IMG/VR virus record: IMGVR_UViG_3300022910_000005
Span: 16,685 to 80,684 of that record
Length of the DNA: 64,000 nucleotides
Source: a virus
Reading direction: 5' to 3' (one strand)
Below, in pieces: positions 4,670 to 57,997 of the stretch (positions are counted from its first letter, which is position 1; the number at the start of each line of letters is the position of its first letter). A model generated the notes under the pieces. It searched no databases, had not been told where the DNA came from, and saw only the letters and a program-made list of their open reading frames with translations. A program made the translations under genes and the position numbers.

Positions 4670-4788
4670 TGGATCACTGGTACTGGGCCGGTGGATTTCA
4701 GGTCGCCGTCTGGGGAACGCTCATCCTCCAGGTCGCCACGGGCATCGTCCGTAGCATCGTCAGGGCGGCGAAGGAGGGCAAGAAGTGA
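4669..4788 (+). CDS. Small membrane protein (39 aa)
   Basis: MDHWYWAGGFQVAVWGTLILQV..., overlaps both neighbours; not in the ORF track. Confidence 0.5.
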   Translation: MDHWYWAGGFQVAVWGTLILQVATGIVRSIVRAAKEGKK

Positions 4789-6452
4789 GCCAGACGAAGA
4801 TCACCGGCAGCCTCCGGCAGCAGGTGTTCGACATCCGGCAGAACCCGCGCAAGCCGTCCGAGTTCCGTTGCGACGGCTGCGGCAAGTACTTCGTGCGCAC
4901 GGCGCTTCAGGTCGACCACATCGTCCCGGAGGCGGACTCGCGCCCGGAGGACCGGCTGGACCCGGACAACCTCCAGTTGCTCTGCTACACCAAGGGCTCC
5001 ACCCGCTGGAATTCCTGCCACAAGCGGAAGACCTACGAGGAGCATCGACGGCGTGCGGTCCGCAACCGGCCGAAGAAGGACTGGGGGCCGTTCTGGCGGC
5101 GGGCTGCCGTGTGCGGCCTGGTCTTCCCGGCCACCTGGAACTTCTGGGTCAACGGTCAGCAGGAGATGATCGACGACCTGGTGAACGGCGTGCTGATCGA
5201 GGCCACCCTCTTCTCCACCTATTTGGTCCAGAAAGGTTGGCGGATGCGCCGCCCCCGGCGGATCATTTCGGCCGACCCGGAAATGCTCGACGAGCCCGGC
5301 CAGGAGGAGGCGATCGACACGCAGCGGATCGTCGAAGCAGCCCGCGAGGTGATGGGCCTGAAGGGCAGCGTGACCGCCCGAGGTGGCCATGAATCGTTCG
5401 TGCTGTCCTACGCCGGAACAGGTTTCGCCGACCATGAGTCGGACAAGCGGTGGAGCCTCCAGGAGAAGATCACCGCGAAGATCGGCGACCGGTGGATCGT
5501 CGACTGGAACACGGCGGAGGACAAGGCCACGTTCACCCGCCGACCGCCGCTGCCGCGCAAGGTGCATCATCCGGGCCTGGACCCGAAGCGGAAGTGGCAC
5601 GTCCTGCCCGTCGCTGACGGGGCCGAGTTCGACCTGCTGGTGACGCCGCACATCCTGATGGCCGGGGAGACGATGTCCGGCAAGACGGCCATGATGCGGG
5701 CGATGCTGATCGCCGCCAGCCAGTCGGCCGCGACCAACGACAACGTCGAGATGAACCTGCTGGACCCGAAACAGATCGAGATGATCGGCTTCCAGGGCTG
5801 GCCGGGCGTGAAGAAGATCGTCACCGACCCGCACGACCTGTGGGCCTTCGCGATCGGCATGAAAGCCGAGATGGACCGCCGGTACCGGGAAGTGAAGGCT
5901 GGCCGGGCGGTGATGTCCCAGTTCAAGAAGATCATTAACTTCTGGGACGAGCAGGAAGAGTTCTACAACGCCATGCTGGAGTTGTGGCAGAGCGGTGAGA
6001 AGGACGAGAACGGTGAGCCGTACAAGCGCTCCGGAGAACGGGTTCCGCGTGCAGTGCGGGCCGTGGCCAGCCTGCTGGCCATGTCCCGTCGGTGCGGCAT
6101 CCACAACGTGATCGCCACGCAGTCACCGGACGCGCTGATCTTCGGCAAGTCCGGCGTCCGCCAGAACATGCCCGGCCGGGCCAGCGTCGGCGCGATCGAC
6201 GGCATCCGGGCGGGCTGGCTGTATGGCGACAGCAGTGTCGGCCGCGACATCCCCTCGAACCTGAAGGGTCGCGCGACGATTCAGATCGGCGACGGCAAGC
6301 CGTTCGAGGTGCAGACCTTCTGGGTGCCGGACCCGTCCGACGGCGACGCGAACTACGACAACGACCAGGAAGACTGGGCGACCCTGCTGCGGCTGGGGAT
6401 GCCCACCGAACAGTTGCCCGAGAAGTTCAATCACCTGCTGGAGGCGGCGTGA
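4785..6452 (+). CDS. HNH nuclease - membrane - FtsK/SpoIIIE ATPase fusion
   Basis: CDGC..VDHIVP..NLQLLC..CHKRKT, hydrophobic segment, Walker A GETMSGKT, LLDPK, Walker B INFWDE, ATQSP. Confidence 0.85.
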   Translation: MSQTKITGSLRQQVFDIRQNPRKPSEFRCDGCGKYFVRTALQVDHIVPEADSRPEDRLDPDNLQLLCYTKGSTRWNSCHKRKTYEEHRRRAVRNRPKKDWGPFWRRAAVCGLVFPATWNFWVNGQQEMIDDLVNGVLIEATLFSTYLVQKGWRMRRPRRIISADPEMLDEPGQEEAIDTQRIVEAAREVMGLKGSVTARGGHESFVLSYAGTGFADHESDKRWSLQEKITAKIGDRWIVDWNTAEDKATFTRRPPLPRKVHHPGLDPKRKWHVLPVADGAEFDLLVTPHILMAGETMSGKTAMMRAMLIAASQSAATNDNVEMNLLDPKQIEMIGFQGWPGVKKIVTDPHDLWAFAIGMKAEMDRRYREVKAGRAVMSQFKKIINFWDEQEEFYNAMLELWQSGEKDENGEPYKRSGERVPRAVRAVASLLAMSRRCGIHNVIATQSPDALIFGKSGVRQNMPGRASVGAIDGIRAGWLYGDSSVGRDIPSNLKGRATIQIGDGKPFEVQTFWVPDPSDGDANYDNDQEDWATLLRLGMPTEQLPEKFNHLLEAA

Positions 6453-7220: not shown

Positions 7221-7658
7221 ATGAGCACCAAGACTGGTCCCGCGCACGGCACGTCACGCCGGTACGGCGACCCTCGCTGGATGTGCCGGTGCGACGTGTG
7301 CACGGACGGCAATTCCCGGCGCGCGAAAGAGGCGCGGGACAAGCGGTTCGGCCAGGAGCCGCCGGAGCATGGCGCGTCCGGCTACGCGAACTACGGCTGC
7401 ACCTGCACGGTCTGCACGGAGGGCAACCGGCAGATGCTGGCCGACAAGCGGAACGCGGCCGGACCGGGCGTCAACCGGCGCAAGGAATGGACGGACGCGG
7501 AGATCAAGAAGATCACCGCGAAGAAGGACGGCCGCCGGTACCAGAAGACGGCGTACCAACTGGCCAAGGAACTGGGCCGGTCGGTCGGTGCGGTGAACCA
7601 GCAGCGGTCCATGTGTAAGGTCAAGTCAGCCACGAAAACCCGCGCCCCCCAGCGGTAG
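7221..7658 (+). CDS. Cys-rich repeat plus HTH protein
   Basis: Two HG..Y..CxCxxC repeats, then WTDAE...LAKELGRSVGAV. Confidence 0.65.
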   Translation: MSTKTGPAHGTSRRYGDPRWMCRCDVCTDGNSRRAKEARDKRFGQEPPEHGASGYANYGCTCTVCTEGNRQMLADKRNAAGPGVNRRKEWTDAEIKKITAKKDGRRYQKTAYQLAKELGRSVGAVNQQRSMCKVKSATKTRAPQR

Positions 7659-7666
7659 ATCCACCA

Positions 7667-7703
7667 GAAGCCCGGCCAGGTGCGCGTCGCCCGGCCGGGC
7701 TTC
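7667..7703 (+). terminator. Hairpin terminator of the GCCCGGCC family
   Basis: GAAGCCCGGCC...GGCCGGGCTTC. Confidence 0.75.
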
Positions 7704-7708
7704 TTGCG

Positions 7709-7738
7709 TTGACAACCGCTTGCCAACTGTGAGAGACT
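7709..7738 (+). promoter_or_regulatory. Promoter with operator, leaderless start at 7745
   Basis: TTGACAAccgcTTGCCAA; TTGACA-N18-GAGACT-N6-ATG. Confidence 0.7.
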
Positions 7739-7744
7739 ACATCC

Positions 7745-7987
7745 ATGAGAACAGTAGTCATCATGGAGCACGACGGCACCGGCTACAAGGCCATGCCGAT
7801 CGCGGTCCTCCAGGTGGAGGACGCGGACCAGGACTGGCGCGTCAAGGACTGGCTGGAGAGAAACGGCTGGTCCGACATCTACACCCCCGAGGGCAGCGCC
7901 TGGTCCAAGTTCGTGCCGGGCATCTACGGCGGCGAGCGCCGGTTCGCTGGCATCAGCGAACCGATCTTCGTGACGGAGGTGAACTGA
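7745..7987 (+). CDS. Hypothetical protein
   Basis: First gene after the promoter. Confidence 0.6.
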   Translation: MRTVVIMEHDGTGYKAMPIAVLQVEDADQDWRVKDWLERNGWSDIYTPEGSAWSKFVPGIYGGERRFAGISEPIFVTEVN

Positions 7988-8166
7988 TGCAGAAGGAGAT
8001 CCGGTCCTGGGCCGAGGTGTCCCACGACCGCGACGACGGCACCGACGTCGGCGTCTACGTGCAGATCAAGGGCCACCGCGTGTGGCTCACCACCGACGAG
8101 GCGCAGCGCCTGATGATGCGCATCAATGCAGCCACCGTCCAGGCCACGCAGGCGAACAAGCGATGA
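7987..8166 (+). CDS. Hypothetical protein
   Basis: GGAGG RBS, coupled. Confidence 0.55.
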   Translation: MQKEIRSWAEVSHDRDDGTDVGVYVQIKGHRVWLTTDEAQRLMMRINAATVQATQANKR

Positions 8167-8393
8167 CCACCTGTCTCCTCCCCTACTTCGGCGACGAGCC
8201 GTGGTCCGCCACCTGTACCCGCTCGCTTTACCACGACGGCGACCATGAAGGCCCCGCCTTCGACGTCGAGCCGCTCGGCGTGGTGGTGACCGACGGCATC
8301 TCCCTGCCGCCCGGCGCGGTGGTGTCCGGTCACTACCGGAGAATCGAACTGGGAACGAAGCGCTGGAACGACAACCAGGAGGTACAGCAGTGA
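8163..8393 (+). CDS. Hypothetical protein with C..C..H.GDH motif
   Basis: ATGA overlap. Confidence 0.5.
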   Translation: MTTCLLPYFGDEPWSATCTRSLYHDGDHEGPAFDVEPLGVVVTDGISLPPGAVVSGHYRRIELGTKRWNDNQEVQQ

Positions 8394-8626
8394 ACGATCC
8401 GAAGTACGTTCGGCTGGTTGGTGGATACTTCGACGCCATGAAGGTGTCCGATCCGGGGATCACTATGCACGAGGATCACCTGATCGAGATCCTCCGGCCG
8501 AACGGCGACCGGCATCCGTACCTGATCGACGACGAAGGCGCGGCGGTCAAGGTCCACATCCGCTCGCACGCCGCCCGCAACGCGGCAGTCACACACACCG
8601 TGAACCAGGAGGACTTGCAGCCATGA
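8390..8626 (+). CDS. Small GG-motif family protein 1
   Basis: N-terminal VRLVGGYFDA. Confidence 0.6.
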   Translation: MNDPKYVRLVGGYFDAMKVSDPGITMHEDHLIEILRPNGDRHPYLIDDEGAAVKVHIRSHAARNAAVTHTVNQEDLQP

Positions 8627-8898
8627 CCATGAAGGACAGTCCGCTGATCCCGATCGTCTCCGGTCCGTACAGCGGCCGGTCGATCAGCGACCCGGAGGTG
8701 CGCTTCCACGAGGAGGACGTCATCCGGATCATGAAGGGCAACGCGCCGACCAACATCCGGCAGGCGTTGAAGGGCGCTCCGGACCCGACCGACGATGCCT
8801 TCGTGATCATCAACGAGAACGGCGAGGCCGTCGACACCAGCGGCCGGAAGAAGTGCTACGGCAAGCGGCACGAGATCTGGGAAGGGGACCTGCCATGA
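8623..8898 (+). CDS. Small GG-motif family protein 2
   Basis: IPIVSGPYSG. Confidence 0.6.
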   Translation: MTMKDSPLIPIVSGPYSGRSISDPEVRFHEEDVIRIMKGNAPTNIRQALKGAPDPTDDAFVIINENGEAVDTSGRKKCYGKRHEIWEGDLP

Positions 8899-9119
8899 TC
8901 ATCAAGTTCAGCGGCGGCATCGCGAACGGCGGTGGCATCGACATGGGTGATCGGTCGGTGAAGACCGGCGACGGCATCCGGGTCACCTGCTCCGGCCTGC
9001 CGAACAGCAACTACAAGGTGTACGCCAACGGTGTCGCCCGCGAGGTGGACGGCCGGTACGTCACCGCCAGCAACGGCCTTAACTGGGTCGTCAGAGGAGA
9101 GGATGTGATCGACCTGTGA
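8895..9119 (+). CDS. Small GG-motif family protein 3
   Basis: IKFSGGIANG. Confidence 0.6.
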   Translation: MIIKFSGGIANGGGIDMGDRSVKTGDGIRVTCSGLPNSNYKVYANGVAREVDGRYVTASNGLNWVVRGEDVIDL

Positions 9120-9324
9120 AGATCAAACTGATCGGCGGATCGTTCAGCGGAAGGCGGGTCGAATCGGACCTGAAGCCCGGCGACCTGCTGCACGTCACGG
9201 ACCACTGGACCCCGCTCATCGGCCCGGCCGTCTACAAGGTGGCCCGGGGCGGCAAGGCGGTCAACCTGACCGGCATCGCCTCGAACAAGGCCGCGCACCA
9301 GGTGGTCAGGAAGGAAGACCTGCT

Positions 9325-9328
<4 letters not shown>
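9116..9328 (+). CDS. Small GG-motif family protein 4
   Basis: IKLIGGSFSG. Confidence 0.65.
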
Positions 9329-9997
<669 letters not shown>

Positions 9998-10057: not shown

Positions 10058-10483
10058 GTGGCCAACCAACTCCTGGGACCGGGACGAGAGGGCTTCCTGC
10101 TCGGCGAGATCGACTGGGACACCGCGACCATCAAGATCTCGGCCGTCCGTGGCTACACCTTCTCGTCCAGCCACAAGTTCGTCTCCGACGCGACCGGCGC
10201 AGGCGCGACCCTGGTGGCCACGGCCACCCTCGGCTCGAAGACCGGCACGAACGGCACCGCCGACGCGGCCGACGCAACGTTCACCGCCGTGGCCGCAGGC
10301 GCAGCGATCACCAGCCTGCTGATCTACCAGGCCAGCGCCGTGACCGGCGGCGCGGACGTCGCTTCCAGCGCGCAGCGTCTCATCGGCTACATCGACACGG
10401 CCACCGGTCTGCCGGTCACGCCCAATGGTGGGGACGTGGTAGTACAGTTCGATAACGGCAGTAACAAAATTTTTACCCTCTAG
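10058..10483 (+). CDS. Virion fibre/spike subunit-like protein
   Basis: Beta-rich A/T/G composition; IDWDTATIK...DAADATF...LIGYID...PNGGDVVV typical of phage fibre proteins; AGGAG RBS. Confidence 0.65.
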   Translation: MANQLLGPGREGFLLGEIDWDTATIKISAVRGYTFSSSHKFVSDATGAGATLVATATLGSKTGTNGTADAADATFTAVAAGAAITSLLIYQASAVTGGADVASSAQRLIGYIDTATGLPVTPNGGDVVVQFDNGSNKIFTL

Positions 10484-10532
10484 GGCCGTAGCCGCCTCTG
10501 CCGCAGCACTTCTCACCCGATAGGAGCCCCAG

Positions 10533-12821
10533 GTGCCCGGTCTCATCGGCCCCTGGGGCTTCGAGGGTCAGTCCAGCGGGACGCAACCGTCTGTCGCGAA
10601 CTCGGACGACTTCGGCGACCCGGCGTTCTCGTCGGTCTCGACCGGCGGTGGCATGTGCACGTACTCATCGGCGCAGGCCAAGTACGGCACGATGTCGCTG
10701 CGGTTCAACATCACGACGGCGGCAACGGCGGCGATCGTCGACTCGGCGGACACCGCCTCGTCCAGCGTCGCCGCGCACTGCTGGATCTACATCGGCACAT
10801 CACCCGGCGGCGAGATCCAGGGCCCGATCGTGTTCCGGAACGCTGCCGGTGCGGTGAACGTCGCTCGCGTGCAGATGACCGCGACGAACCAGTTCCGCAA
10901 CGTCTTCATCACGGGCGGCACCGGGACGGCCAGTACCGCGACCATCTCGACGGCCGGTTGGTATCGGGTCGAGGCCGTGGTGACCGGCGCGACCGGCGTC
11001 GCGTCGGCGCTGAGCATGACGTCGAACGTGTACGACTCGTCCGGCTCCCTGGTGGTGGCCGTCCCGGCATTGACCGGCGGCACGGGCGGCAACATCGACA
11101 CGATCCGCTGGGGCAAGGCAGGCGGTTCGTTCACCGTCGACTTCTGGCTCGACGACCTGCGGATGAACTTCGGGTCCGGTACCGAGATCGGCATCCCGAC
11201 CCAGACGTTGACCCCGGCTGGCCTGGCGACCGTCGAATCGTGGGGCACGCAGGTGCTCACCCCCGGCTCGGTGAACGTCACCCCGGCCGGGATCATCGCG
11301 GCCGAGCAGTGGGGCAGCGCCCTGCTGACGCCCGGTTCGGTGGCCGTGGCCCCGACCGGCCTGGCGACCGGCGAGACGTTCGGCTCCGACACGGTGACGC
11401 CCGGCCAGGTGGCTGTCTCCCCGGCGGGGATCGCGTCGGCCGCCGCGTTCGGCTCCGACACGGTCGCGCCCGGTTCCGTCAGCGTCGCGCCGTCCGGCCT
11501 GGCGACTGGCGAGGCGTTCGGGTCGGCCACGGTCACCAGCAAGGCGACGATCAGCCCGGCCGGGGTCGCGTCGGCCGAGGCGTTCGGGTCGGCGACCGCT
11601 GGCATCGTCGTGGTCGCCGTCAGCCCGTCCGGGCTGGCCAGCGGTGAGGCGTTCGGCAGCAGCATGGTGGTGCCCGGCCAGGCGGCTGTCGCCCCGGCGG
11701 GGATCGCGTCGGCCGCCGCGTTCGGCAGCGCCACGGTGGCCGCTGCGGCTGCCGTCATCGCTCCGGCGGGGATTGCGAGCGGCGAGGCGTTCGGGGCCGG
11801 GAGCGTCCAGCCTGGGGCTGCTGTGGTGGCACCGAGCGGGCTCGCCTCCGGCGAATCGTGGGGCACCGCGACGATCCGCAGCAGCGTCACGCCCACCGGC
11901 CTGGCCAGCGCGGAGGCGTTCGGGTCGGCCACCATCGTCAGCGTCGTCGCGCCGGGTGGGGTGGCGACCGGCGAACAGTGGGGCGCACCGGCCATCAGCC
12001 GGGCGCTGACGGCCTCCGGCATCGCGTCGGCCGAGGTGTTCGGGACCGCGTCCGTCGTGCCGGGAGCGTCCAACGTCGCGCCGTCCGGCGTGCCTACTGG
12101 GGAGACGTGGGGCGAGCCATTCGTCGGCGCGGGCGGGGCCCGGCTCAGCCCCGTCACGATCCCCACCGGGGAGCAGTGGGGAACCGCCGCGCTCATCCCC
12201 GGCCCGGCACCGACGATCCTCCCGCCGCCGATCGCGACCGGCGAACAGTTCGGCACGCCCCGGATCGACACCGGCCCGGCGCTGCCCGTCGGCCTGCCGT
12301 CCGCCGAAGCGTGGGGCGAGACGGCGGTCAAGCCGCAGCCGGTCGTCATCAGCGTGGCCGGGATCGCCAGCGCGGAAGCGTGGGGCCAACCGGACACGCT
12401 GCCGGGGGCCGCCGTCATCTCCCCGGCAGGCATCCCGTGGGGGCAGGCGTGGGGAAGCCCGATCGTCGGCCCCGGCTACACCCCGATCATCCCGGCCAGC
12501 ATCACTACGGGCGAGGCGTTCGGCACGCCATCCATCAGCACCCGGGCGACCATCTCGCCGTCCGGGATCGGCACCGGGGAAGCGTTCGGTCTGCCGACGC
12601 TGCACCTGCGGCTGCGCCTGGCCGGGATCGGCACCAGCGCTGCCTGGGGCTCGCCGACGATAGTCCTGGGTGTCGACCCGGACGGCCGGGACGTGGACCT
12701 GGTGGGCATCCTCGCTGACCAGGGCCGCATTGGCACTATCCTGGCTGAACAGGGCCGCGTCTCAACAGGACTCGCGACACAGGGGCGGATCACCGCCGGA
12801 TTGAGGGACCAGGATGGCTGA
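10533..12821 (+). CDS. Lectin-like N-domain plus about 22 PxG(I/L)AxxExFG repeats (fibre-associated)
   Basis: LamG-like motifs (GWYRVE, FWLDDL) followed by 20-23-aa repeats. Confidence 0.7.
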   Translation: MPGLIGPWGFEGQSSGTQPSVANSDDFGDPAFSSVSTGGGMCTYSSAQAKYGTMSLRFNITTAATAAIVDSADTASSSVAAHCWIYIGTSPGGEIQGPIVFRNAAGAVNVARVQMTATNQFRNVFITGGTGTASTATISTAGWYRVEAVVTGATGVASALSMTSNVYDSSGSLVVAVPALTGGTGGNIDTIRWGKAGGSFTVDFWLDDLRMNFGSGTEIGIPTQTLTPAGLATVESWGTQVLTPGSVNVTPAGIIAAEQWGSALLTPGSVAVAPTGLATGETFGSDTVTPGQVAVSPAGIASAAAFGSDTVAPGSVSVAPSGLATGEAFGSATVTSKATISPAGVASAEAFGSATAGIVVVAVSPSGLASGEAFGSSMVVPGQAAVAPAGIASAAAFGSATVAAAAAVIAPAGIASGEAFGAGSVQPGAAVVAPSGLASGESWGTATIRSSVTPTGLASAEAFGSATIVSVVAPGGVATGEQWGAPAISRALTASGIASAEVFGTASVVPGASNVAPSGVPTGETWGEPFVGAGGARLSPVTIPTGEQWGTAALIPGPAPTILPPPIATGEQFGTPRIDTGPALPVGLPSAEAWGETAVKPQPVVISVAGIASAEAWGQPDTLPGAAVISPAGIPWGQAWGSPIVGPGYTPIIPASITTGEAFGTPSISTRATISPSGIGTGEAFGLPTLHLRLRLAGIGTSAAWGSPTIVLGVDPDGRDVDLVGILADQGRIGTILAEQGRVSTGLATQGRITAGLRDQDG

Positions 12822-13110
12822 CGAACTCACGCAGTGGAGTGTCGCTGCGGAGACCAAGGAGTGGGTCGGCCCGATCACGGTGACCGCCGACGGTGTGCCG
12901 ACGAGCGCCTTCGAGGTGACCCTGACGGAGCCGGGCGCTCGCCCGGCCGACTGGGTGACGGCCACCCTGCTGGACGGCGGCCGGGGCATCCTGATCGGCG
13001 AAGGCACCGACTTCACCCTGGTGGCCGGACGCAAGTACACGGTGTGGATCAAGTTCACGGACGACCCGGAGATCCCCGTGCAGCGCGTCGGCAACGTGAG
13101 GACGTACTGA
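12814..13110 (+). CDS. Small beta-sandwich adaptor (BppU-like)
   Basis: GRKYTVWIKFTDDPEIPV pattern; follows the fibre gene. Confidence 0.55.
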   Translation: MADELTQWSVAAETKEWVGPITVTADGVPTSAFEVTLTEPGARPADWVTATLLDGGRGILIGEGTDFTLVAGRKYTVWIKFTDDPEIPVQRVGNVRTY

Positions 13111-13466
13111 TGTACGACTATCGGGCTCGGCTGGTGCGCCTGATCGACGCGGACACGTTCGTGCTGGACATCGACCTGGGCTTCTACGTCCACACCGAAC
13201 AGCACATCCGCCTGCTCGGCATCGACTGCCCGGAAGGCAGGACGCCGGAAGGCAGGCGGGCCACCGAGTTCACCCGCTCCTGGTGGGCGGCCCGAGGCGA
13301 CGAAGCGGTCGTCGTGACCGCGAAGCGGCCGACCCGCTCGCTGGAACGGTTCGTGGCGCAAGTGCTGACCGCCGAGCAGATCGTGCCCTCGCCGCCGTTC
13401 GACAAGAACCTCGACGCCTGCCTGCGCCTGGCCGGTCACTTCAAGCCGGTCGAACACCTGGGGTGA
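13110..13466 (+). CDS. Thermonuclease (SNase-like)
   Basis: RLIDADTF...IRLLGIDCPE. Confidence 0.75.
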   Translation: MYDYRARLVRLIDADTFVLDIDLGFYVHTEQHIRLLGIDCPEGRTPEGRRATEFTRSWWAARGDEAVVVTAKRPTRSLERFVAQVLTAEQIVPSPPFDKNLDACLRLAGHFKPVEHLG

Positions 13467-13541: not shown

Positions 13542-13832
13542 TCACCACACGCCGGGGTTCGGCTTGCGGCGACGCTTCAGTTCCCGCAGGGACGTCTTCG
13601 GCCCGATCAGCCCGTACTCCACCCCGTACCAGGCGGCCAGCCTCGGCACCAGCCGCTCCACCGACCACTGAACCGTTTCGAGAGAGTGGTCGAGCAACTG
13701 CACGCCGATCTCGTTCCAGTCGATCCTGACCGGCTGGACGAGAACCGGCTCCAGGTAGTACCTGGTCTTGTCCGGCAGAGTGATGAAGGTTTCATGCCAC
13801 CTGTGGCCCGGCTCCAGCCGGACGACCCTCAT
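13542..13832 (-). CDS. Hypothetical protein
   Basis: Last gene of the minus-strand operon, ATGA overlap. Confidence 0.55.
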   Translation of the reverse strand: MRVVRLEPGHRWHETFITLPDKTRYYLEPVLVQPVRIDWNEIGVQLLDHSLETVQWSVERLVPRLAAWYGVEYGLIGPKTSLRELKRRRKPNPGVW

Positions 13833-14023
13833 ACCGGCGGCTCCTCGTACAGTTGGATCGCCTCTTCGGCAACCAGCACCCGGCCGAGGCCGACGTGCGC
13901 CTGCCGGACGTAGTAGACGACGCCGTCGACCCGCACCCGGTTCGGCTTCGCGCCGTCCGGGATGCGCACGCGCTTCGGCTCGCCGTCACGGGGGCCGCCG
14001 ACGAAGGTCATCGACTCGATCAT
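13829..14023 (-). CDS. Small GG-motif family protein 7
   Basis: MTFVGGPRDG. Confidence 0.6.
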   Translation of the reverse strand: MIESMTFVGGPRDGEPKRVRIPDGAKPNRVRVDGVVYYVRQAHVGLGRVLVAEEAIQLYEEPPV

Positions 14024-14841
14024 CGGATAGCCGGTTCCATCGTGATCTCGATGTTCGGCGGGAACGCCTTGTGCAGCGCGTCCAGCAGGGACGGCAGCGC
14101 CATCACGTCGGACCCGGCCAGGAGGGTCTTCGCCTCCCCGGCGTACGAGCGCAGTTCCGAGCGGACTGCCTTGCCGCGCAACGATTCACGCAGGACGTGG
14201 ATGCTGCGGATGCGTGCGAGGGGGATCTGCTTGGCGGCCATCTTCTTGTCCGGGTCGAGCCGCACCACGTCGCCGTCGCAGTCGATGACGTGCGCCACGT
14301 TGGTGGACAGCGGCCGGTTCGTGGTCCGCTGGTAGGAGATCCGCACGTAGTTGCCTTCGGCCAGCGCCCACGGCCCGGCCGGGAGCGTCATGGCCTGCAT
14401 CATGCTGTTCGCCTGGACGCTGATCGGGATCTCGATCGAGATGCTGTTGCCGATGAAGTGCTGTACCTGGTAGGCGCGGGCGCGAGGTTTCGTCTCCGCG
14501 AAGGACAGCACCAGGTACGCCAGGGACGTGTCGGCCGCCATCCGCAGGTCCGTGTCGGACAGGATCGGCTCGCTGGTTGGGTGGCTGTGAAACATCGCCA
14601 CCGGCTCCTCGGCGGCCAGGTCGAAGTCGGCGTACGCCAGCCGGACTTCCTCCGGGTGCATCTTGAACGTGGTGATCGGCTTCTCGGACACGTTGCGCAT
14701 CCAGTGCACGCGCACGCCGAGGCTGGAGCCCTTCTCGGCGACGATGAAGCCGCACGACTCCTGGGGTCGCTGGAGCCTGCACATCCGGATCATGTTCTGC
14801 ATGGTGCTGGCCGTCATGGTCAGCGAGCCGGGAACGCTCAC
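14020..14841 (-). CDS. JAB/MPN+ metallo-isopeptidase with C-terminal WYL-like domain
   Basis: ESCG...FHSHPTSEPILSDTD JAMM motif; C-terminal ALAEGNYVRISY...IPLARIRSI. Confidence 0.8.
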   Translation of the reverse strand: MSVPGSLTMTASTMQNMIRMCRLQRPQESCGFIVAEKGSSLGVRVHWMRNVSEKPITTFKMHPEEVRLAYADFDLAAEEPVAMFHSHPTSEPILSDTDLRMAADTSLAYLVLSFAETKPRARAYQVQHFIGNSISIEIPISVQANSMMQAMTLPAGPWALAEGNYVRISYQRTTNRPLSTNVAHVIDCDGDVVRLDPDKKMAAKQIPLARIRSIHVLRESLRGKAVRSELRSYAGEAKTLLAGSDVMALPSLLDALHKAFPPNIEITMEPAIR

Positions 14842-15399
14842 TCAGGTGCCTCCGCTGGAAAGGATGATCAGGACCCCGTACCAGACGGCGACCATCCCTC
14901 CGAGCATTTGCACGCCGGTCACGAACCGGTCTTCGCTTTTCGAGCCGGTCACCATCCAGCCGATGCGGATCTTATGCTTGACCAGCGGATATAACAAGCC
15001 CACGCCGTCCACGGTGAGCATGTCGATGAAGATGTGCAGCCCCCAGCCGATCGCGACCGCGTGAGCCAGCGTCCAGTTGCTCAGCAGCCAGCCGGTCAGG
15101 CCCCACGCGAACAGCACGGAGAGAGCGGAGTGGGTGAGCATCCGGTGCCCGCCCATCAGGCCCCTGATCCAGCGGGGCACGTACCGGCCGACCGTCGAGT
15201 TGTGGTGGTCGAGGTCCGGCAGGAACGACGCCAGCCCGGCCAGGATGAAACCCGCCAGCGCGTCCTTCATGCCCTGGCCGGGCAGGAGGATCGTCGTGCC
15301 AGCCAGGTGGGCCGACGACCAGACGGGAGCCGACACGGTCACCGGCAGGCTGGCGAACCAGCCGACCCATGCCGTGTTGACTCCCGCCCGCGCGTTCAC
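14842..15399 (-). CDS. YdjM-like membrane metal-dependent hydrolase
   Basis: LPDLDH, HRMLTHS, HIFIDMLT..GV.LLYP motifs. Confidence 0.8.
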   Translation of the reverse strand: MNARAGVNTAWVGWFASLPVTVSAPVWSSAHLAGTTILLPGQGMKDALAGFILAGLASFLPDLDHHNSTVGRYVPRWIRGLMGGHRMLTHSALSVLFAWGLTGWLLSNWTLAHAVAIGWGLHIFIDMLTVDGVGLLYPLVKHKIRIGWMVTGSKSEDRFVTGVQMLGGMVAVWYGVLIILSSGGT

Positions 15400-15608
15400 T
15401 TCAGGACCAGCATGTAATGCGGTAGCACCTGCTCGGTGAGGCGGCCCGGCCGGATGTTCAACTGGCCGTCGATTTCGGACCGAACCTGGACGGCGACGGT
15501 GGTGCCCATGATGTCCTTCACCCGCCCGATGGCGGCACCGCCGCCCGGCCGGAGGACGGCCACGTTGCAGCCGACGGTGACCTCCTCGCCGATCCGATCG
15601 AACATCAT
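15396..15608 (-). CDS. Small SH3/KOW-like protein
   Basis: DRIGEEVTVGCNVA. Confidence 0.55.
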   Translation of the reverse strand: MMFDRIGEEVTVGCNVAVLRPGGGAAIGRVKDIMGTTVAVQVRSEIDGQLNIRPGRLTEQVLPHYMLVLK

Positions 15609-15844
15609 GATGGAATCCTTACCTGTTCGTGGGTTTTCACGACGTGCGCCCGATGCAGGCGGACGACAGGGTGCCCGGTCTGGTAGACGAGCGGACCACC
15701 GAGGTTGGCGGTGGCGATCACTTCGGCGTCGATCATGCTGCTCATGCCGAGGATTTTGACGATCTTCCCGAGCACCACGTCGTTGCCCGCGTAGGCGGCG
15801 ACCAGGTCGTCCACCTTGATCTGCGTTCCGACGGCGTCTTTCAC
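15605..15844 (-). CDS. Small SH3/KOW-like protein (paralog of neighbour)
   Basis: DAVGTQIKVDDLVA. Confidence 0.55.
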   Translation of the reverse strand: MKDAVGTQIKVDDLVAAYAGNDVVLGKIVKILGMSSMIDAEVIATANLGGPLVYQTGHPVVRLHRAHVVKTHEQVRIPS

Positions 15845-16032
15845 GGCTTGATCACCCACTTCGCGTCCGGGACGGTGTCGACGTACTTGGCCTTGCTGCG
15901 CCAAAAGTGACCGTGCAGGGCGCACCAGATCTCGCTGTAGTCGGACGGCGTGACCTTGTAGCCGTTGAAGGCGGACTGGTTGCAGTTGCGCATGGTCACC
16001 ACCCAGTTCTGCTTGTCCTTGCAACGGTTCAT
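15841..16032 (-). CDS. Hypothetical protein
   Basis: Coupled ORF. Confidence 0.55.
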   Translation of the reverse strand: MNRCKDKQNWVVTMRNCNQSAFNGYKVTPSDYSEIWCALHGHFWRSKAKYVDTVPDAKWVIKP

Positions 16033-16241
16033 GCCCGGTCCTTCCTGAATCTCCAGAGAGGCTTGCGGTCGGACTGGTCCTGGTGGACCAGGTAGGCGAT
16101 CGGCACCGCGAGCAGCGTGACCGGAAGCATTTCCGGTGCCCATTTCGCGATGCCGATCGCGCCCAGGACGCCCAGGCCGGTGACGAACCAGCGGCCGGGC
16201 TGCGTTTCCGAGAGGTCGATGACCCAGTGACGTTCCGGCAT
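16029..16241 (-). CDS. Small membrane protein
   Basis: Two hydrophobic segments, coupled. Confidence 0.55.
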   Translation of the reverse strand: MPERHWVIDLSETQPGRWFVTGLGVLGAIGIAKWAPEMLPVTLLAVPIAYLVHQDQSDRKPLWRFRKDRA

Positions 16242-16555
16242 CAGTGCTCGATGTACCAGACGGTGACGTCCACGGTGCCGACCTTGCCGGTCCGGCCGTA
16301 AGCCTTGCCGATCAGGCGCATGACCTGCTCGATGGCGGTCGGCAGGCTGAGCGCGTTGGCGACGTGGAGCATGACGCCTTCGTCCTTCACCTGGATGTGC
16401 AGGGCGTTGCGGCCCTGCACCCGAAGGTCGACCAGGCCGTTCTTCAGGTGCGGCCGACGGTCGATCTCGGCCAGCACCAGGTCGATGACCGCAGCACTGG
16501 TGTCGACGGAGGCGTTCTTCAGGGTGATGGTGCTGATCTCGGTCTTCTTCGTCAT
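16241..16555 (-). CDS. Hypothetical protein (leaderless)
   Basis: ATG 6 nt after the -10 element. Confidence 0.65.
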   Translation of the reverse strand: MTKKTEISTITLKNASVDTSAAVIDLVLAEIDRRPHLKNGLVDLRVQGRNALHIQVKDEGVMLHVANALSLPTAIEQVMRLIGKAYGRTGKVGTVDVTVWYIEH

Positions 16556-16561
16556 GACTTG

Positions 16562-16613
16562 AGTTTACCAACGCCGAAGGGGACTTGTCAACTGTATGAC
16601 AAGTCCCCTTCGG
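16562..16613 (-). promoter_or_regulatory. Promoter TTGACA-N18-TAAACT inside a perfect 17-bp hairpin
   Basis: Stem 16574-16590/16597-16613; heptamers at 16585 and 16596. Confidence 0.75.
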
Positions 16614-32453: not shown

Positions 32454-33262
32454 GCCCCGTGCAGCGGAACGACGACGACGGACGCCAGATCCGGCAGCCG
32501 TGGCTGGGCGCGAAAGGCGCACGCTGGCCGATGGACTGGACCTACGACGAGTGGGCGCTCGGCCTGTTCGGGTTCATCGTCGGCGGGACGCTGATCACCT
32601 GGGTGGTCCCGGCTGCCGTCATGGCGTTCATCGTGATCCGTTCCGCTGCACGGTTCATCTCGATCCGCAACAACCCGCACGCGCCCCGCAAGACGTACCT
32701 GCTCGTCGTGGCGATGATGACGACGCTCTGCCTGATCCTGTCCGTCAACCCGATGTTCTGGCTCAAGCCGATCTTCCTGCCGTTCGCGCTGGTCGCGTCG
32801 CTGTTCATGCCCTCGCGCACCGTGAAGGCGTACGGCAAGTACGTCGGCTGGAACCGGCCGCTGTCCTACTGGATCGCCATGCCGTTCCGGATCGCCCGGG
32901 GGCCGCGCCTGGTGCCCACCGACACGATCAACCCGGCGATGCTCGGCATGGGCCTCGACCTGGAGAGCCTCGACCGCGATGACACGGCCGACCTGGTGCC
33001 CGGCCGGATCGTCACGATCCCCCGGCTGAAGGCCCCGGCCAGGAAACCTGCGCCGCAGGCGCTTGCCCCCAAGCCCGTCAAGGCGACCATCACCAGCGCA
33101 CCGAAGAAGACCGCCCGCGTCGCCCGCACCCCGCTGACCGAGCGCCGCCTCGTCGCACCGGGCGCTCCGGTCCGCCACCGCACCCGCAAGCAGAACCTGA
33201 TCTACCGCACGCCGACCGGCCTGATGGTCTTCGGCACCGAGTACCGGATGGAGAGCCGCTGA
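32450..33262 (+). CDS. Conjugal transfer membrane protein (VirB3/TcpE position)
   Basis: Multi-TM, directly upstream of the VirB4-like ATPase. Confidence 0.55.
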   Translation: MSPVQRNDDDGRQIRQPWLGAKGARWPMDWTYDEWALGLFGFIVGGTLITWVVPAAVMAFIVIRSAARFISIRNNPHAPRKTYLLVVAMMTTLCLILSVNPMFWLKPIFLPFALVASLFMPSRTVKAYGKYVGWNRPLSYWIAMPFRIARGPRLVPTDTINPAMLGMGLDLESLDRDDTADLVPGRIVTIPRLKAPARKPAPQALAPKPVKATITSAPKKTARVARTPLTERRLVAPGAPVRHRTRKQNLIYRTPTGLMVFGTEYRMESR

Positions 33263-35949
33263 TGGGCCTGTTCGCCGCCCCCAAGAAGACGACCTGGACG
33301 ACACCGGTCCGCAAGACGATCGCTCTCGCGCCGACGGCCAAGCAGGTGGTGCGCAACCTGATCCTGCTGAAGGACGGCAGCGTGCTGGCCGGTTACCGGA
33401 TCGGCGACGCACGCTGGGACTTCACCGGCAAGGACGCGAAGATCATGCGGATGGACCAGGACGCGGACGTGTTCGCCGCGCTGGTCGGCCGGTCCTACCA
33501 CGAGCGGGTCACCACCCGCCCGCACCCGGTCGCGACCTGGGCCGGGAACCTCGACAAGCGGACGCCACGCCCGACGCCCGACATCCACACCTGCGACCTG
33601 AGCGCGGGCCTTTCCCAGGGCGACCTGCTGAACGGCCGGTGCGGCTGCGAGACGTGGGGCCGTCACCTGATCCGCCAGCAGGACGTCATCGCCCGTTCCG
33701 GCATGAACGACAAGATCGTCTTCCGCTACTTCGGCCTGACCGTGAAGGTGTCGCCGCGCACCGACCTTCGCAAGCAGATCAACGAGTTCGTGAAGACCGG
33801 CAAGGCGTCCGGCGTCGTGGCTCGGCTGATCGCCGACGAGAAGCGCGTCAGCGACATCGTGACCGGCTGGCCGGGCTCCAAGCGGATGAGCGAGTACGAG
33901 CAGGGCTGGCTGCGGGTCCGCTCGCTGTCGCCCGGCGTCATCCCCACCGGCATCCACAGCAAGGACCGGGGCGGCTGGGACGAACTGGCCCTGCCTGCCC
34001 TCGCGTCCGACACCCGGTGGGCCGAGACGCCTTTCGGCCGGACCGTGACCGTCACCTCGTTCGCCGACGGCAAGCAGGTCGAGTCGGCCGTGCGCGTGCT
34101 GACGATGGCGCGGATGGCCGACCTGAACTACCCGGAGAACGGGATGCCGCCGTGGCAGGTGCACGGCGAGTCCGTCCTGGACGCTTCCGGCCGCCCGTTC
34201 CCGGTGGAGTGGTCGGTCGTCGGCCGTCTGCGCTCCGGCGAGGAACTGGCCAAGGAGGTGGAATTCGAACTGCGGCGCGTCCAGCACGTCAAGGGCGACT
34301 ACGAGGATCACAGCGAACTGCCGCCGTCGAACGTCGGCAAGGCCATCGCCGTCGCCGTCGACACCCGCGACCAGGTCACCACCGGCCAGGCTGCTGTCGC
34401 CGCCAGGTTCCAGGGACAGATCAACGTGATCATCTCCGGCCAGGCGACCGAGAACCTCACCGCCGAGCAGGTGGTCGAGGAGCGGTGCGCCGCGTTCACC
34501 CGGATGTACGCCAACGCTGGCCTGCGGATGGACTTCACCGGCTCCGACAGCCAGTCGTTCATGCTGGCCAGCACGGTGCCCGGTGAGCCGTACGACCGGC
34601 TCGGCTTCCAGCGTCGCCTGCGGCTGCCGTTCCTGACGGCCGGGATGCCGAACGTCTCCTCGTCCGTCGGTGACGGCGTCGGCCCGTACCTGGGCCACAC
34701 CCGGGGAGCGACCCGGCGCGCGGTGCAGCACGACCCGCACTTCGCCACGGAAGGTCTGCGGACCGGCCGGGGCCAGAACATGCACGTCGTGCTCGGCACG
34801 CTCGGTGCCGGGAAGTCCGTCGTGACCGGCTCCATCGGCTACAACGCCGTCCGCCGGGGCATCCGCACGGTCATCTCCGACCCGTCCGGCCCGCTCGCGG
34901 CGCTGACGAAAATGCCGGAGATCGCGGACGTTTCGCAGGAGATCAACCTGCTGAACGGCGCGCGGGGCATCCTGTCCCCGGCCGCACTGATCCGCGACCC
35001 GCTGCTGACCGAGTACGACGAGCCCGGCCAGTTCGCGGAGGCCCTGGGCCAGGCGGCGGCCGAGCGGCGGGACCTGATGGTCGACATGGCCAAGCGCTGC
35101 CTGCCGGACTACCTGATGAAGGACCAGGCCGAAGCCCGCACGGAGGCGGCCCTGCGCCTGGCCGCTCGCCAGCACGCCGAGACGCGGGACGGCTGGAAGC
35201 AGACCGACACCATGTGGGACCTGATGCGTCCGCTGAAGGACAGCACCGACGACTGGGCGAAGGCCGTCCACGGTGCGCTGACGGACGCCTCCACCGCTCC
35301 GCTGCTGCGCCTCATGTTCCCGGAGCCGGGCGCTCCCGGCAGCATCGGGCACTACGACAAGACGCTCACGGTGATCACTACCCCTGGCATCGTGCGGGCC
35401 GTGGACGGCACGCCGCGCAAGGACTGGAACCCGCTGGAGGTCGGGGCCGACGTGGTGCTGCGCCTGGTCGGACTGTTCACCGACCGGCTGATCTACTCGA
35501 AGACCCGCAGCGAACGCTGCATCGCGATCTTCGACGAGGCCGAGTCGCTGACGGACTTCGGGCCGGGCCGGTCCATGCTGTCCCGGCTGGGCCGCGACCA
35601 CTCCAAGTGGAACATCGCCGTCTACCTGGCCGTGAAAAGCATCAACCCGCAGATGCTTTCGGGGGAGTTGAAGAACTTCCTCGCCAGCGTGTTCGTCGGC
35701 CGGATGGCATCGCGCGAACCGGCCGAGGCCGCGCTGGAACTGCTGGGGCTGACCGACAAGCGGTACGCGCAGGTGCTCATGGGCCTGTCCACGTACGTGC
35801 CCGGCGAGTTCGTCCACGCCGACGTGGCCGGGAACGTGGGGATGCTGAAGGTCGACGTGGACTACCACCCGGCCCTGAAGGACGCACTGCTGACCGACCC
35901 GACTCCGGAAGGCTCCGGCCACTGGACCCTTGAAGAGGAGATCGCCTGA
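33262..35949 (+). CDS. VirB4/ConE-like conjugation ATPase
   Basis: 895 aa, Walker A GTLGAGKS, DPSG, Walker B IAIFDEAE, RDHSKWN. Confidence 0.85.
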   Translation: MGLFAAPKKTTWTTPVRKTIALAPTAKQVVRNLILLKDGSVLAGYRIGDARWDFTGKDAKIMRMDQDADVFAALVGRSYHERVTTRPHPVATWAGNLDKRTPRPTPDIHTCDLSAGLSQGDLLNGRCGCETWGRHLIRQQDVIARSGMNDKIVFRYFGLTVKVSPRTDLRKQINEFVKTGKASGVVARLIADEKRVSDIVTGWPGSKRMSEYEQGWLRVRSLSPGVIPTGIHSKDRGGWDELALPALASDTRWAETPFGRTVTVTSFADGKQVESAVRVLTMARMADLNYPENGMPPWQVHGESVLDASGRPFPVEWSVVGRLRSGEELAKEVEFELRRVQHVKGDYEDHSELPPSNVGKAIAVAVDTRDQVTTGQAAVAARFQGQINVIISGQATENLTAEQVVEERCAAFTRMYANAGLRMDFTGSDSQSFMLASTVPGEPYDRLGFQRRLRLPFLTAGMPNVSSSVGDGVGPYLGHTRGATRRAVQHDPHFATEGLRTGRGQNMHVVLGTLGAGKSVVTGSIGYNAVRRGIRTVISDPSGPLAALTKMPEIADVSQEINLLNGARGILSPAALIRDPLLTEYDEPGQFAEALGQAAAERRDLMVDMAKRCLPDYLMKDQAEARTEAALRLAARQHAETRDGWKQTDTMWDLMRPLKDSTDDWAKAVHGALTDASTAPLLRLMFPEPGAPGSIGHYDKTLTVITTPGIVRAVDGTPRKDWNPLEVGADVVLRLVGLFTDRLIYSKTRSERCIAIFDEAESLTDFGPGRSMLSRLGRDHSKWNIAVYLAVKSINPQMLSGELKNFLASVFVGRMASREPAEAALELLGLTDKRYAQVLMGLSTYVPGEFVHADVAGNVGMLKVDVDYHPALKDALLTDPTPEGSGHWTLEEEIA

Positions 35950-38239: not shown

Positions 38240-38367
38240 GCCGGTCGCAGCGGAGGATAGAACTGGACCTGAAGTACGGAATTGTCACCATGATGATCGT
38301 CGAGGCGGCCTGCTTCGCCGTTCCGTTCTGGCTGCTGGTTGCGCTCGTCCGGTGGTGGGCGGCGTGA
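38236..38367 (+). CDS. Small membrane protein (43 aa)
   Basis: GTGA overlaps; not in the ORF track. Confidence 0.45.
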   Translation: MSRSQRRIELDLKYGIVTMMIVEAACFAVPFWLLVALVRWWAA

Positions 38368-38564
38368 GCAACTGGGTGCCGCCGCACATTCCGATCCGGG
38401 ACCATCCCGGGCCGCCCCGCTGCTGGATGTGCAACCGGCGGCTGCGCTGGTGGCAGATGACCACCTGCCGGACCTGCTCGCCGCACTTCCACGACTTCAT
38501 GTGGCTGCACAACCACATGGGCCGCAACACGTTCGCCCCACCCGACCGATGGAGGAACCGATGA
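38364..38564 (+). CDS. Small zinc-finger protein
   Basis: CWMC...CRTC. Confidence 0.5.
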   Translation: MSNWVPPHIPIRDHPGPPRCWMCNRRLRWWQMTTCRTCSPHFHDFMWLHNHMGRNTFAPPDRWRNR

Positions 38565-39544
38565 AGATCTGGATCGCTGCGGGCGCAGCCAGCCTGGCCG
38601 GGCTCGTCGCGGTTCCGCTCGCCATCACCAGTCTGATGTTCGGCCCACCGCCGCTGCCCGCGCTCAGCATCGCCACCCAAGAGGTCTCCTCCTGCACGGT
38701 GCAGATCCCGGCCAGCGCGCGCACGGCCGGAGCACTGTCGGCCGAGCAGGTCGCGAAATATGCGTACGCGGCCGGTTTCCGTGGGCAGGACATCAACATC
38801 GCCGTGGCCGTGGCCCGCGCCGAGTCCGGCTGGCGGCCGACCGCAACCCTGCTGAACACCAACGGCAGCACCGACCACGGCCTGTTCCAGATCAACTCGA
38901 TCCACGCGGCGATCCTCGCGGAAGGGAACTGGGCTGACCCGGCCGACAACGCGAAGATGGCGTTCAAGGTCTGGACGCAGGCGGGCGGCAAATGGTCCCC
39001 GTGGGTGACGTACTGGCGCGGCACCTACAAGCAGTACCTGACGGACGTCGACCCGAAACCCACCTGCACCACACCGAAGTCGACCGGCCCGTGCAAGAAG
39101 GTGAGCGGTGAGTTCTCCAACGGGCTCATCCCGGCCAGCGCGCTCTGCACCCTGTGGACCAACCGCCACCACCGCCTGCGGGCCGACGCCGCCAACTCGT
39201 TCGACGCGATGAGCCGGGCGTACATGGCGAAATTCGGTGTGCGGCTGTGCCTTACGGACTCCTACCGGCCGCTGTCCGTGCAGATCGACCTGAAGCGGCG
39301 GAAGGGTTTCCTAGCCGCGAAGCCCGGCACGTCCAACCACGGCTGGGGTCTGGCTGTCGATCTGTGCGCTCGCGGCAGCCAGGAGAACCCGCAGCCGTGG
39401 AACCGTGGCACCGAGGACGACGTGTGGCTGCACCAGAACGCACCGAAGTTCGGCTGGGTCCACCCCGGCTGGGCTGAGCCGTCCGGCTCGAAACCCGAAC
39501 CCTGGCACTGGGGTTACAACCTCGACAAGGAGCACGCACCGTGA
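38561..39544 (+). CDS. Conjugative cell-wall hydrolase: lytic transglycosylase plus M15/VanY-like peptidase
   Basis: N-terminal TM; AESG, DHGLFQIN; DSYR, PGTSNHGWGLAVD, EPWHW. Confidence 0.88.
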   Translation: MKIWIAAGAASLAGLVAVPLAITSLMFGPPPLPALSIATQEVSSCTVQIPASARTAGALSAEQVAKYAYAAGFRGQDINIAVAVARAESGWRPTATLLNTNGSTDHGLFQINSIHAAILAEGNWADPADNAKMAFKVWTQAGGKWSPWVTYWRGTYKQYLTDVDPKPTCTTPKSTGPCKKVSGEFSNGLIPASALCTLWTNRHHRLRADAANSFDAMSRAYMAKFGVRLCLTDSYRPLSVQIDLKRRKGFLAAKPGTSNHGWGLAVDLCARGSQENPQPWNRGTEDDVWLHQNAPKFGWVHPGWAEPSGSKPEPWHWGYNLDKEHAP

Positions 39545-56917: not shown

Positions 56918-57952
56918 TCAGGCCCCCACAGTGCGGATGTAGCCGACCGGGTAACGGGTGTTCTCGGTCGGGTTGTCGTTGTTGATCGTGTTGGCAACCT
57001 GCCAACCGACCCGGAACTTGAGGCGCAGCGCCTGCATGTCCTGCTGCGGCAGGTTGTAGACGATGTTGCCGTTGTCGTCCGTGATCACACCGTCGGTGAT
57101 CAACTTGTACTCGATGCCACTCTTGACGCCGACCACGAACTGGGACCAGTCGCCACCGAGCAGCGCCACACCGTTGACGCCGGGGCCGCCCGAAACCGGC
57201 CACAGGCCACGCATCGGGTACATGATCGGCACGCCGTCGACCGACCGCAGGTCGCCGCCGACGCGGGACTCGTCCAACTTGCGGCCCTGGGTGTCGCGGA
57301 CCTTGCGGAACTTCGACCGGGTCGCGATCGGGGAGAGGTAGCCGGTGATGTCGTACCCGTCCTCCTCGACCTTCCCGATCAGGTTGTCCAGGTCGCCCAT
57401 GAAGCCACCCTGGGCGGTGGTCGAGGTGCCGAAGTCCACGAAGTTCCCGGCCGCAGCCGCAGCAGCGACGATGTTGGTCGGGAAGGACGACGGAGCGTTC
57501 GCGCCGAAGTAGACGGCCGAATCCAGCACGCGGGCGAAGGCTTCGACCAGGAGCGGCTGAGCCTCGTCCCAGATGTTCACCGACACGTCCTCCATGACGT
57601 TGTCGGGGACCGGCATGATCGTGGCGATCTCCTCGATCGTCAGATACTTATTGCTCCAGCCCATCTCGGTCGTCTGCTTCAGACCGGTGTCGCCCGCCAC
57701 CCAGTACGCGATCGGCAGGGCGGTGAGGATCGGGAAGCGCATCGACGTGCCCTGCACCGGAATCCGGCGGAACATCGCCATGACCGCCGAGCCTTCGGTG
57801 GCCTTGCCGAGCATCTCGTTGGAGACCTGCTCGGGGATCAGCGGGGCCACGTCCGACCGGTTGGTCAGCGAGTCGTACGCCGCGCCCGAGAAGCCGAAGA
57901 TCGGCCGCCCGTCGGCGCGGGAGCCGATCGGCTCCCGAAGGTGGTTCTTCAC
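56918..57952 (-). CDS. Major capsid protein (HK97 fold)
   Basis: LIPEQVS, AYWV, GDWSQ, NLPQQDMQALR...RVGW. Confidence 0.92.
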   Translation of the reverse strand: MKNHLREPIGSRADGRPIFGFSGAAYDSLTNRSDVAPLIPEQVSNEMLGKATEGSAVMAMFRRIPVQGTSMRFPILTALPIAYWVAGDTGLKQTTEMGWSNKYLTIEEIATIMPVPDNVMEDVSVNIWDEAQPLLVEAFARVLDSAVYFGANAPSSFPTNIVAAAAAAGNFVDFGTSTTAQGGFMGDLDNLIGKVEEDGYDITGYLSPIATRSKFRKVRDTQGRKLDESRVGGDLRSVDGVPIMYPMRGLWPVSGGPGVNGVALLGGDWSQFVVGVKSGIEYKLITDGVITDDNGNIVYNLPQQDMQALRLKFRVGWQVANTINNDNPTENTRYPVGYIRTVGA

Positions 57953-57997
57953 TGCGACTCCTGGGGGTCAATGCGACCCCCAGGATGGGGGCCGCGA

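Follow-up and report, generated by a model that had tools for sequence, protein, structure and literature searches.

A predicted JAMM peptidase with a private Sm-like C-terminal module in a conserved gene cassette of uncultured actinophages

In phage lambda the JAB domain of the tail protein gpK is combined with an NlpC/P60 domain, and its gene lies in the tail module by those of gpL and gpI; to our knowledge, no substrate has been assigned for decades to phage JAB domains of this kind. The minimal JAMMs (P. furiosus JAMM1, 5LD9/5LDA; the H. volcanii desampylase; DSY2949, 2KKS; SRU_2040, 2KCQ) are single-domain proteins that act with SAMP or other ubiquitin-like protein (Ubl) and E1 partners, and the deubiquitinases (DUBs) of bacterial defence, such as CBASS Cap3 (9ILD), BilC (8TYY) and BubCD (9EA5), are encoded in defence operons. 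All characterised JAMMs known to us cut after a short extended tail of the Gly-Gly/Gly-Ala type. Here we analyze a stretch of 64,000 nt (the window), bases 16685-80684 of the 80,684-bp IMG/VR virus record IMGVR_UViG_3300022910_000005, which was rated complete by CheckV. On its minus strand, at window positions 14020-14841, it carries a gene for a 273-aa protein, named JAB-CTD for its JAB domain and C-terminal domain (CTD). Judging from the sequence, this is a genuine phage gene for an intact JAMM peptidase, whose domain partner is new and whose operon is conserved. What is new here is the placement of a JAB gene in a conserved cassette, between genes for a YdjM-type membrane protein and a small protein with a GGPxDG motif.

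The JAB-CTD gene was delineated by its open reading frame and Shine-Dalgarno sequence. It starts with GTG at 14841, directly after the stop of the upstream gene and with GGAGG 7 nt upstream, ends with the stop codon 14020-14022, and has a G+C content of 0.94 at third codon positions. The JAMM/MPN+ metallopeptidase domain occupies residues 1-143 (14413-14841), which are matched by PF14464 (Prok-JAB) over residues 11-114 (E=6.8e-14; 52.2 bits, the cut-off being 25; 54.1 bits in a six-frame search). An earlier note on this DNA had described a complete JAMM motif, and all its elements are indeed present: E28 (14758-14760), H85-S-H87 (CAC AGC CAC, 14589-14581, with the histidine codons at 14587-14589 and 14581-14583), S95 (14557-14559) and D98 (14548-14550). 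These residues are invariant in 22 close relatives. Among 50 full-length relatives, down to about 22% identity, both H85 and H87 are kept in all, E28 and D98 in 49 each, and S95 in 46, with Thr in two more. The domain has the MPN fold, and the full-length AlphaFold2 model reaches a predicted local distance difference test score (pLDDT) of 87.9. On its catalytic residues, the protein is very probably an active JAMM peptidase, and it is the single JAB protein of the whole 80.7-kb phage.

Several lines of comparison connect this domain with the gpK-like branch. Across all libraries, the top-scoring profile for the JAB domain is phrog_30, annotated as 'minor tail protein' (78.6 bits, E=1.3e-21), and phrog_2635 also matches (E=2.3e-14). 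In cultured phages, the only tblastn matches are lambda gpK homologues (Gifsy-1, Fels-1 and others) with E-values of 1e-6, and eight of the nine next-nearest viral and metagenomic relatives (27-34% identity) have the JAB plus NlpC/P60 architecture. The family therefore looks, at the sequence level, like a gpK-type JAB in which NlpC/P60 has been swapped for an Sm-like module and which has moved out of the tail module. Both types are phage-encoded, share the JAB branch and have no assigned substrate. However, JAB-CTD gives no match to PF00877 (NlpC/P60) and contains an Sm-like barrel and a helical module instead; its gene is situated away from the tail module, without gpL or gpI genes next to it, and is coupled to YdjM. 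The closest solved folds are the minimal JAMMs, from which JAB-CTD differs by an extra module of 130 residues and by residing in a genome without Ubl or E1. Its similarity to the defence DUBs in sequence is weak, and it is encoded by a phage rather than in a defence operon: ThiF and ThiS are absent from the phage and the neighbours are YdjM and small proteins, E2 and CD-NTase families not having been searched separately. The JAB-CTD family comprises about 45 clusters at 50% identity, all of the same two-domain length and all from metagenomes or virus contigs of up to 76 kb. Pattern-based scans of GTDB genomes recovered no relative of JAB-CTD or YdjM, which may reflect only the pattern method.

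The C-terminal part of the protein is separated from the JAB domain by a variable linker (residues 144-156, 14374-14412), with indel-rich, unconserved alignment columns and pLDDT below 50 at residues 146-151. It consists of a basic five-stranded Sm/SH3-like beta-barrel (residues 157-219, 14185-14373) and, by secondary structure, a helical hairpin with a terminal strand at 265-268 (residues 220-273, 14023-14184). Modelled alone from 54 sequences, the CTD gave a pLDDT of 93.4 and a predicted template-modelling score of 0.84, with five barrel strands (165-218) followed by two helices (221-242 and 249-259) and the last strand. Strong conservation is seen at W158, L160, G163, N164 (50/50), V166, Y170 and R210 and, in the hairpin region, at E219, R227 and an 'AFP' motif with P261. 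The barrel is basic throughout the family, with a median charge of +3, against -6 for the acidic JAB domain. No structural match was found for residues 220-273 in fold searches with little coverage of the hairpin region.

This segment had been read as WYL-like in the earlier note. The strings quoted there (A159-L-A-E-G163, V166-R-I-S-Y170 and I206-P-L-A-R-I211) are present and fall in conserved columns, but membership in the WYL family is not supported. The CTD is similar to WYL domains in its five-stranded Sm-like barrel, its basic charge and its best Foldseek matches in PDB, which are PafBC (6SJ9, E 0.087), CapW (7TB5, 0.13), PafBC (9FND, 0.15) and BrxR (7QFZ, 0.21). These four WYL entries stand within the nine best matches, intermixed with Tudor, Spindlin, KOW and LSm domains, and none falls below an E-value of 1e-3. 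VIA-align, applied both to the full PDB representative set and, as a re-examination, to the Foldseek candidates, scored GerQ at 6.0, the GatD N-domain at 5.6, Hfq/LSm at 5.0-5.6, ribosomal L19 at 4.5-5.1 and PafBC at 4.6-4.8; by the calibration of the tool itself these are ties, at a level common among unrelated small barrels. PF13280 (WYL) had no match at E<=1 on the JAB-CTD protein and none at E<=10 across the whole phage, in a search whose controls matched in 9 of 14 genomes. Alignment of the CTD with a single E. coli WYL protein by hhalign gave a probability of 0.2%, and the CTD profile retrieved no WYL chain and nothing relevant from PDB sequences. Searched across 5.8 billion proteins, the same profile matches only proteins with PF14464 as their sole Pfam domain. 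BFVD contained no convincing viral structural match for the CTD, and ESM Atlas nothing usable for it. Instead of the usual WYL architecture (N-terminal helix-turn-helix, WYL, WCX) in a regulator context, the N-terminus is a peptidase, with Prok-JAB as the only Pfam domain. A kinship of the CTD with a neighbouring 70-aa small protein was rejected (hhalign probability 0.4%). As modelled, the CTD is an Sm/SH3-like barrel, of the fold class of WYL and private to the JAB-CTD family.

The cassette has the order YdjM-type membrane protein, JAB-CTD, small GGPxDG protein, and possesses its own predicted promoter and a palindrome. Represented in four divergent phage lineages, it recurs in four other loci, L009 (JAB 97% identical), L001 (55%), L010 (47%) and L025 (36.5%, with the YdjM-type protein 39% identical and matched by Pfam at 92 bits), whose flanking genes vary. 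The first member of the cassette, directly upstream of JAB-CTD in all four, is a polytopic YdjM/DUF457-type membrane protein of 185 aa (14842-15399, minus strand, as for the whole unit; PF04307, E=4.7e-20, above the gathering cut-off); its match to NF008651, 'metal-dependent hydrolase', is below the cut-off of that model. It shares the Pfam match and the conserved His/Asp motifs, here PDLDH, GGHRM-THS and H-x3-DMLT, with E. coli YdjM, which differs in being chromosomal and SOS-regulated and has no assigned activity. We found no report in the literature tying YdjM to a JAB protein; one literature match to 'DUF457' was discarded, being actually DUF4579 of Cap1. The small protein of 64 aa (13829-14023), which starts with the pattern h-h-h-GGPxDG, has no match in Pfam, PHROG, NCBIfam or PADLOC. 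Its homologue lies directly downstream of JAB-CTD in the same four loci, and a doubtful one without GG occurs in L012. Both junctions of the JAB gene are translationally coupled: the YdjM stop codon abuts the JAB start codon, and the ATG of the small gene overlaps the JAB stop (ATGA). JAB-CTD, YdjM and the small protein are thus likely to form a functional unit.

Upstream of this unit, a promoter-like TG-extended site TTGACA-18-TAAACT (16591-16562) and a perfect 36-nt palindrome (16576-16611), GAAGGGGACTTGTCA-N6-TGACAAGTCCCCTTC, together span 16562-16611. The palindrome overlaps the -35 box and has one perfect copy in the window, with 0.07 expected by chance; by its sequence it looks like an operator and is a candidate for that role. 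The first gene after the site encodes a 104-aa protein of no assigned function (16241-16555), which has no Pfam or PHROG family match and in ESM Atlas falls into unnamed Actinomycetota clusters only. Its homologues stand upstream of YdjM in L001, L010 and L025 by blastp synteny, and TTGACA(A)-type sites also precede it in L001 and L025. The small genes between it and YdjM (15396-16143), one for 70 aa (phrog_2251) and one for 100 aa without assignment, are variable; in L025 they are absent and the homologue of the 104-aa gene abuts YdjM. The last gene of the unit (13542-13832; 96 aa, no assigned function) is conserved only in the near-identical L009. In L025 the cassette is followed by a papain-family gene (7919-8800; Peptidase_C1, E=6e-7), which has no counterpart in the phage of the window.

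Small proteins of 49-88 aa that start with a hydrophobic strand and then GG-x-x-[DSN]G are encoded in the window at 13829-14023 and 9116-9728, in L001 at 8816-9004, in L010 at 8765-8965 and in L025 at 7517-7747; the JAB gene always has one of them after it. Three or four GG-type proteins form a tandem array at 8853-9728. We also considered that the JAB domain might cut behind the 'GG' of the small protein encoded next to it, but this idea is weakened, the GG being 7-15 residues from the N-terminus, followed by Pro and absent from the doubtful L012 homologue.

The best explanation of these observations, with a probability of roughly 0.4, is that JAB-CTD is a competent JAMM/MPN+ zinc (iso)peptidase of the gpK-like branch, with a CTD that serves for targeting or regulation, at the centre of a separately promoted cassette. 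The bond cut by the JAB domain, peptide or isopeptide, would follow a short extended tail of the Gly-Gly/Gly-Ala type. The C-terminal module, as the targeting or regulatory part, would bind a partner, the substrate or nucleic acid, and the protein would act probably near the membrane, through YdjM. Neither ThiF (E1) nor ThiS/MoaD nor a lambda gpI homologue was found anywhere in the 80.7-kb phage. The earlier statement that no E1, E2 or Ubl gene is nearby thus stands for E1 and ThiS-type Ubl, and over the whole genome, whereas E2 families were not searched. Since neither an E1 nor a ThiS-type Ubl is encoded by the phage, what the enzyme cuts must be either a conjugate made by the host or a protein of phage or host. 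Our leading guess, still a doubtful one, is that JAB-CTD strips host ubiquitin-like tags and so works as a counter-defence deconjugase. Removal of host Ubl tags by DUB domains of phage tails has been a speculation of Hor et al. (10.1101/2023.09.04.556158), and we found no later test of the idea in the literature.

Several points weigh against this explanation. JAB-CTD has no homologue in cultured phages that could offer a phenotype. The best NCBIfam match is the desampylase model NF041370, at 55.4 bits where its cut-off is 130, and the JAB models of PADLOC score only 13-15 bits (PDLC00900, E=0.0035, 15.5 bits; PDLC00890, E=0.011). Such close coupling to genes for a membrane protein and a small protein is not known to us from any DUB-type counter-defence. 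Finally, the conserved gene order could partly reflect shared ancestry, since every context is from a single broad clade of related uncultured actinophages.

The phage itself has a G+C content of 67%. Its large terminase is 55% identical to terminases of Arthrobacter phages, and its major capsid protein (MCP) and the one of Arthrobacter phage Eileen share 63% identity, so it is an uncultured actinophage. Genes of conjugation-like type in this tailed phage encode an HNH plus FtsK/SpoIIIE protein, an 895-aa ATPase of the AAA_10 (VirB4/TraG-like) type and an SLT lysozyme plus VanY peptidase (4785-6452, 33262-35949 and 38339-39544). The JAB-CTD gene is near the distal end of a long leftward non-structural block with primase-helicase, exonuclease and endonuclease VII genes. 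It had been described as far from the tail genes; this is true of the main tail module, about 30 kb away, but a phrog_13352 'minor tail protein' gene (10533-12821, plus strand) ends 1.2 kb downstream in convergent orientation. The 762-aa product of the latter gene contains seven matched stretches and about 20 short repeats of the type PxGxAxxExFG; the main tail module is 30 kb away from this gene and is encoded on the other strand. A gene for a thermonuclease-like endonuclease (13107-13466, plus strand; phrog_452, E=2e-16) separates this orphan fibre module from the end of the JAB unit that converges on it.

Other roles can be proposed for JAB-CTD. The closeness of its JAB domain to gpK-type tail proteins would suit a relocated gpK-like assembly factor for tails or fibres that serves the orphan fibre module (10058-13110), with whose last gene the cassette end is convergent in the window, L001 and L012. 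We regard this as highly improbable: the protein lacks NlpC/P60, no gpI-type Ubl accompanies it, its gene is on the opposite strand in a separate transcription unit with its own promoter, and in L010 and L025 the fibre module, phrog_13352 gene included, is not adjacent to the cassette. Processing of a host sulfur carrier, by an auxiliary metabolic enzyme resembling Mec+/CysO hydrolase or desampylase, is suggested by the desampylase match, the minimal-JAMM folds and one homologue named CysO-cysteine hydrolase by the Joint Genome Institute. Such a role seems most improbable, as the score of 55 bits is far under the equivalog cut-off, the phage has no CysO, ThiS or MoaD gene, and neither the extra CTD nor the link to YdjM would be accounted for. 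The model of the earlier note, in which sensing of single-stranded DNA or RNA by a WYL domain gates an anti-defence deconjugase whose targets are conjugates of the CBASS, Bil or CysO type, draws on the shared fold class, the four WYL entries among the best Foldseek matches and the consistently basic barrel; given the comparisons above, gating of the WYL type is very unlikely.

A further alternative, unlikely but specific, is a peptidase for head maturation or leader removal. The scaffold, of 219 aa, and the 80alpha-type MCP, of 344 aa, which are encoded at 56918-58657 (minus strand) and also at 691-2529 of L031, begin with a common leader of roughly 24 residues with the motif ..PIGxRxDGRPxxGFSG[A/G], which the only JAMM of the phage would remove; it might also trim the GGPxDG proteins. 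The leader of 80alpha, to whose family the MCP belongs, is cut by Prp, a host enzyme of Firmicutes. Both proteins carry the leader in the phage of the window and in G002, a phage with a 36%-identical JAB-CTD, where the MCP leader ends in ..SGG; JAMMs cleave after tails of the Gly-Gly type. The closest cultured relative, Arthrobacter phage Eileen, has neither the leader nor JAB-CTD, and the leader has no match in cultured phages. The N-termini of the GGPxDG proteins loosely resemble the leader core, their own core being I/L-G-x-[PR]-x-[DN]-G, a likeness that may be due to chance. However, 43 kb separate the JAB-CTD gene from the head module, its unit includes a membrane-protein gene, and the evidence for co-occurrence of leader and JAB-CTD is a pair of related complete genomes. 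Another ten IMG/VR contigs with the leader are fragments (4-52% complete) that have no replication module and do not reach the JAB region, and thus say nothing either way. Moreover, the head module already contains, between portal and scaffold, a homologue of phrog_1522, 'head maturation protease' (58757-59764, minus strand; 335 aa, E=4e-66; 39% identical to Eileen gp4); no protease domain of Pfam is found in it, so that 'protease' is here an annotation and not a demonstrated fold. Parts of these proposals could be combined in a phage module of a type not described before, in which a gpK-derived JAMM is positioned by the Sm-like domain, possibly gated by nucleic acid or the small protein, and cuts Gly-Gly/Gly-Ala-ended tails, either host Ubl tags on phage proteins or the shared scaffold/capsid leader. 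We consider this quite unlikely.

Members of the JAB-CTD family are free-standing, soluble, confidently modelled and, by sequence, catalytically intact, with a private CTD and fixed partner genes, and thus offer a cleaner entry point to the target of a phage JAMM than the tail-embedded gpK. Work on them would give the first functional context for the DUF457/YdjM membrane protein. If the target is the leader shared by scaffold and capsid protein, this would explain how capsids of the 80alpha type are matured in hosts without Prp, by a JAMM-based route that replaces the host enzyme. If host Ubl tags are the target, JAB-CTD would be the first phage deconjugase dedicated to countering conjugation of the Bil or CBASS type in Actinomycetota.
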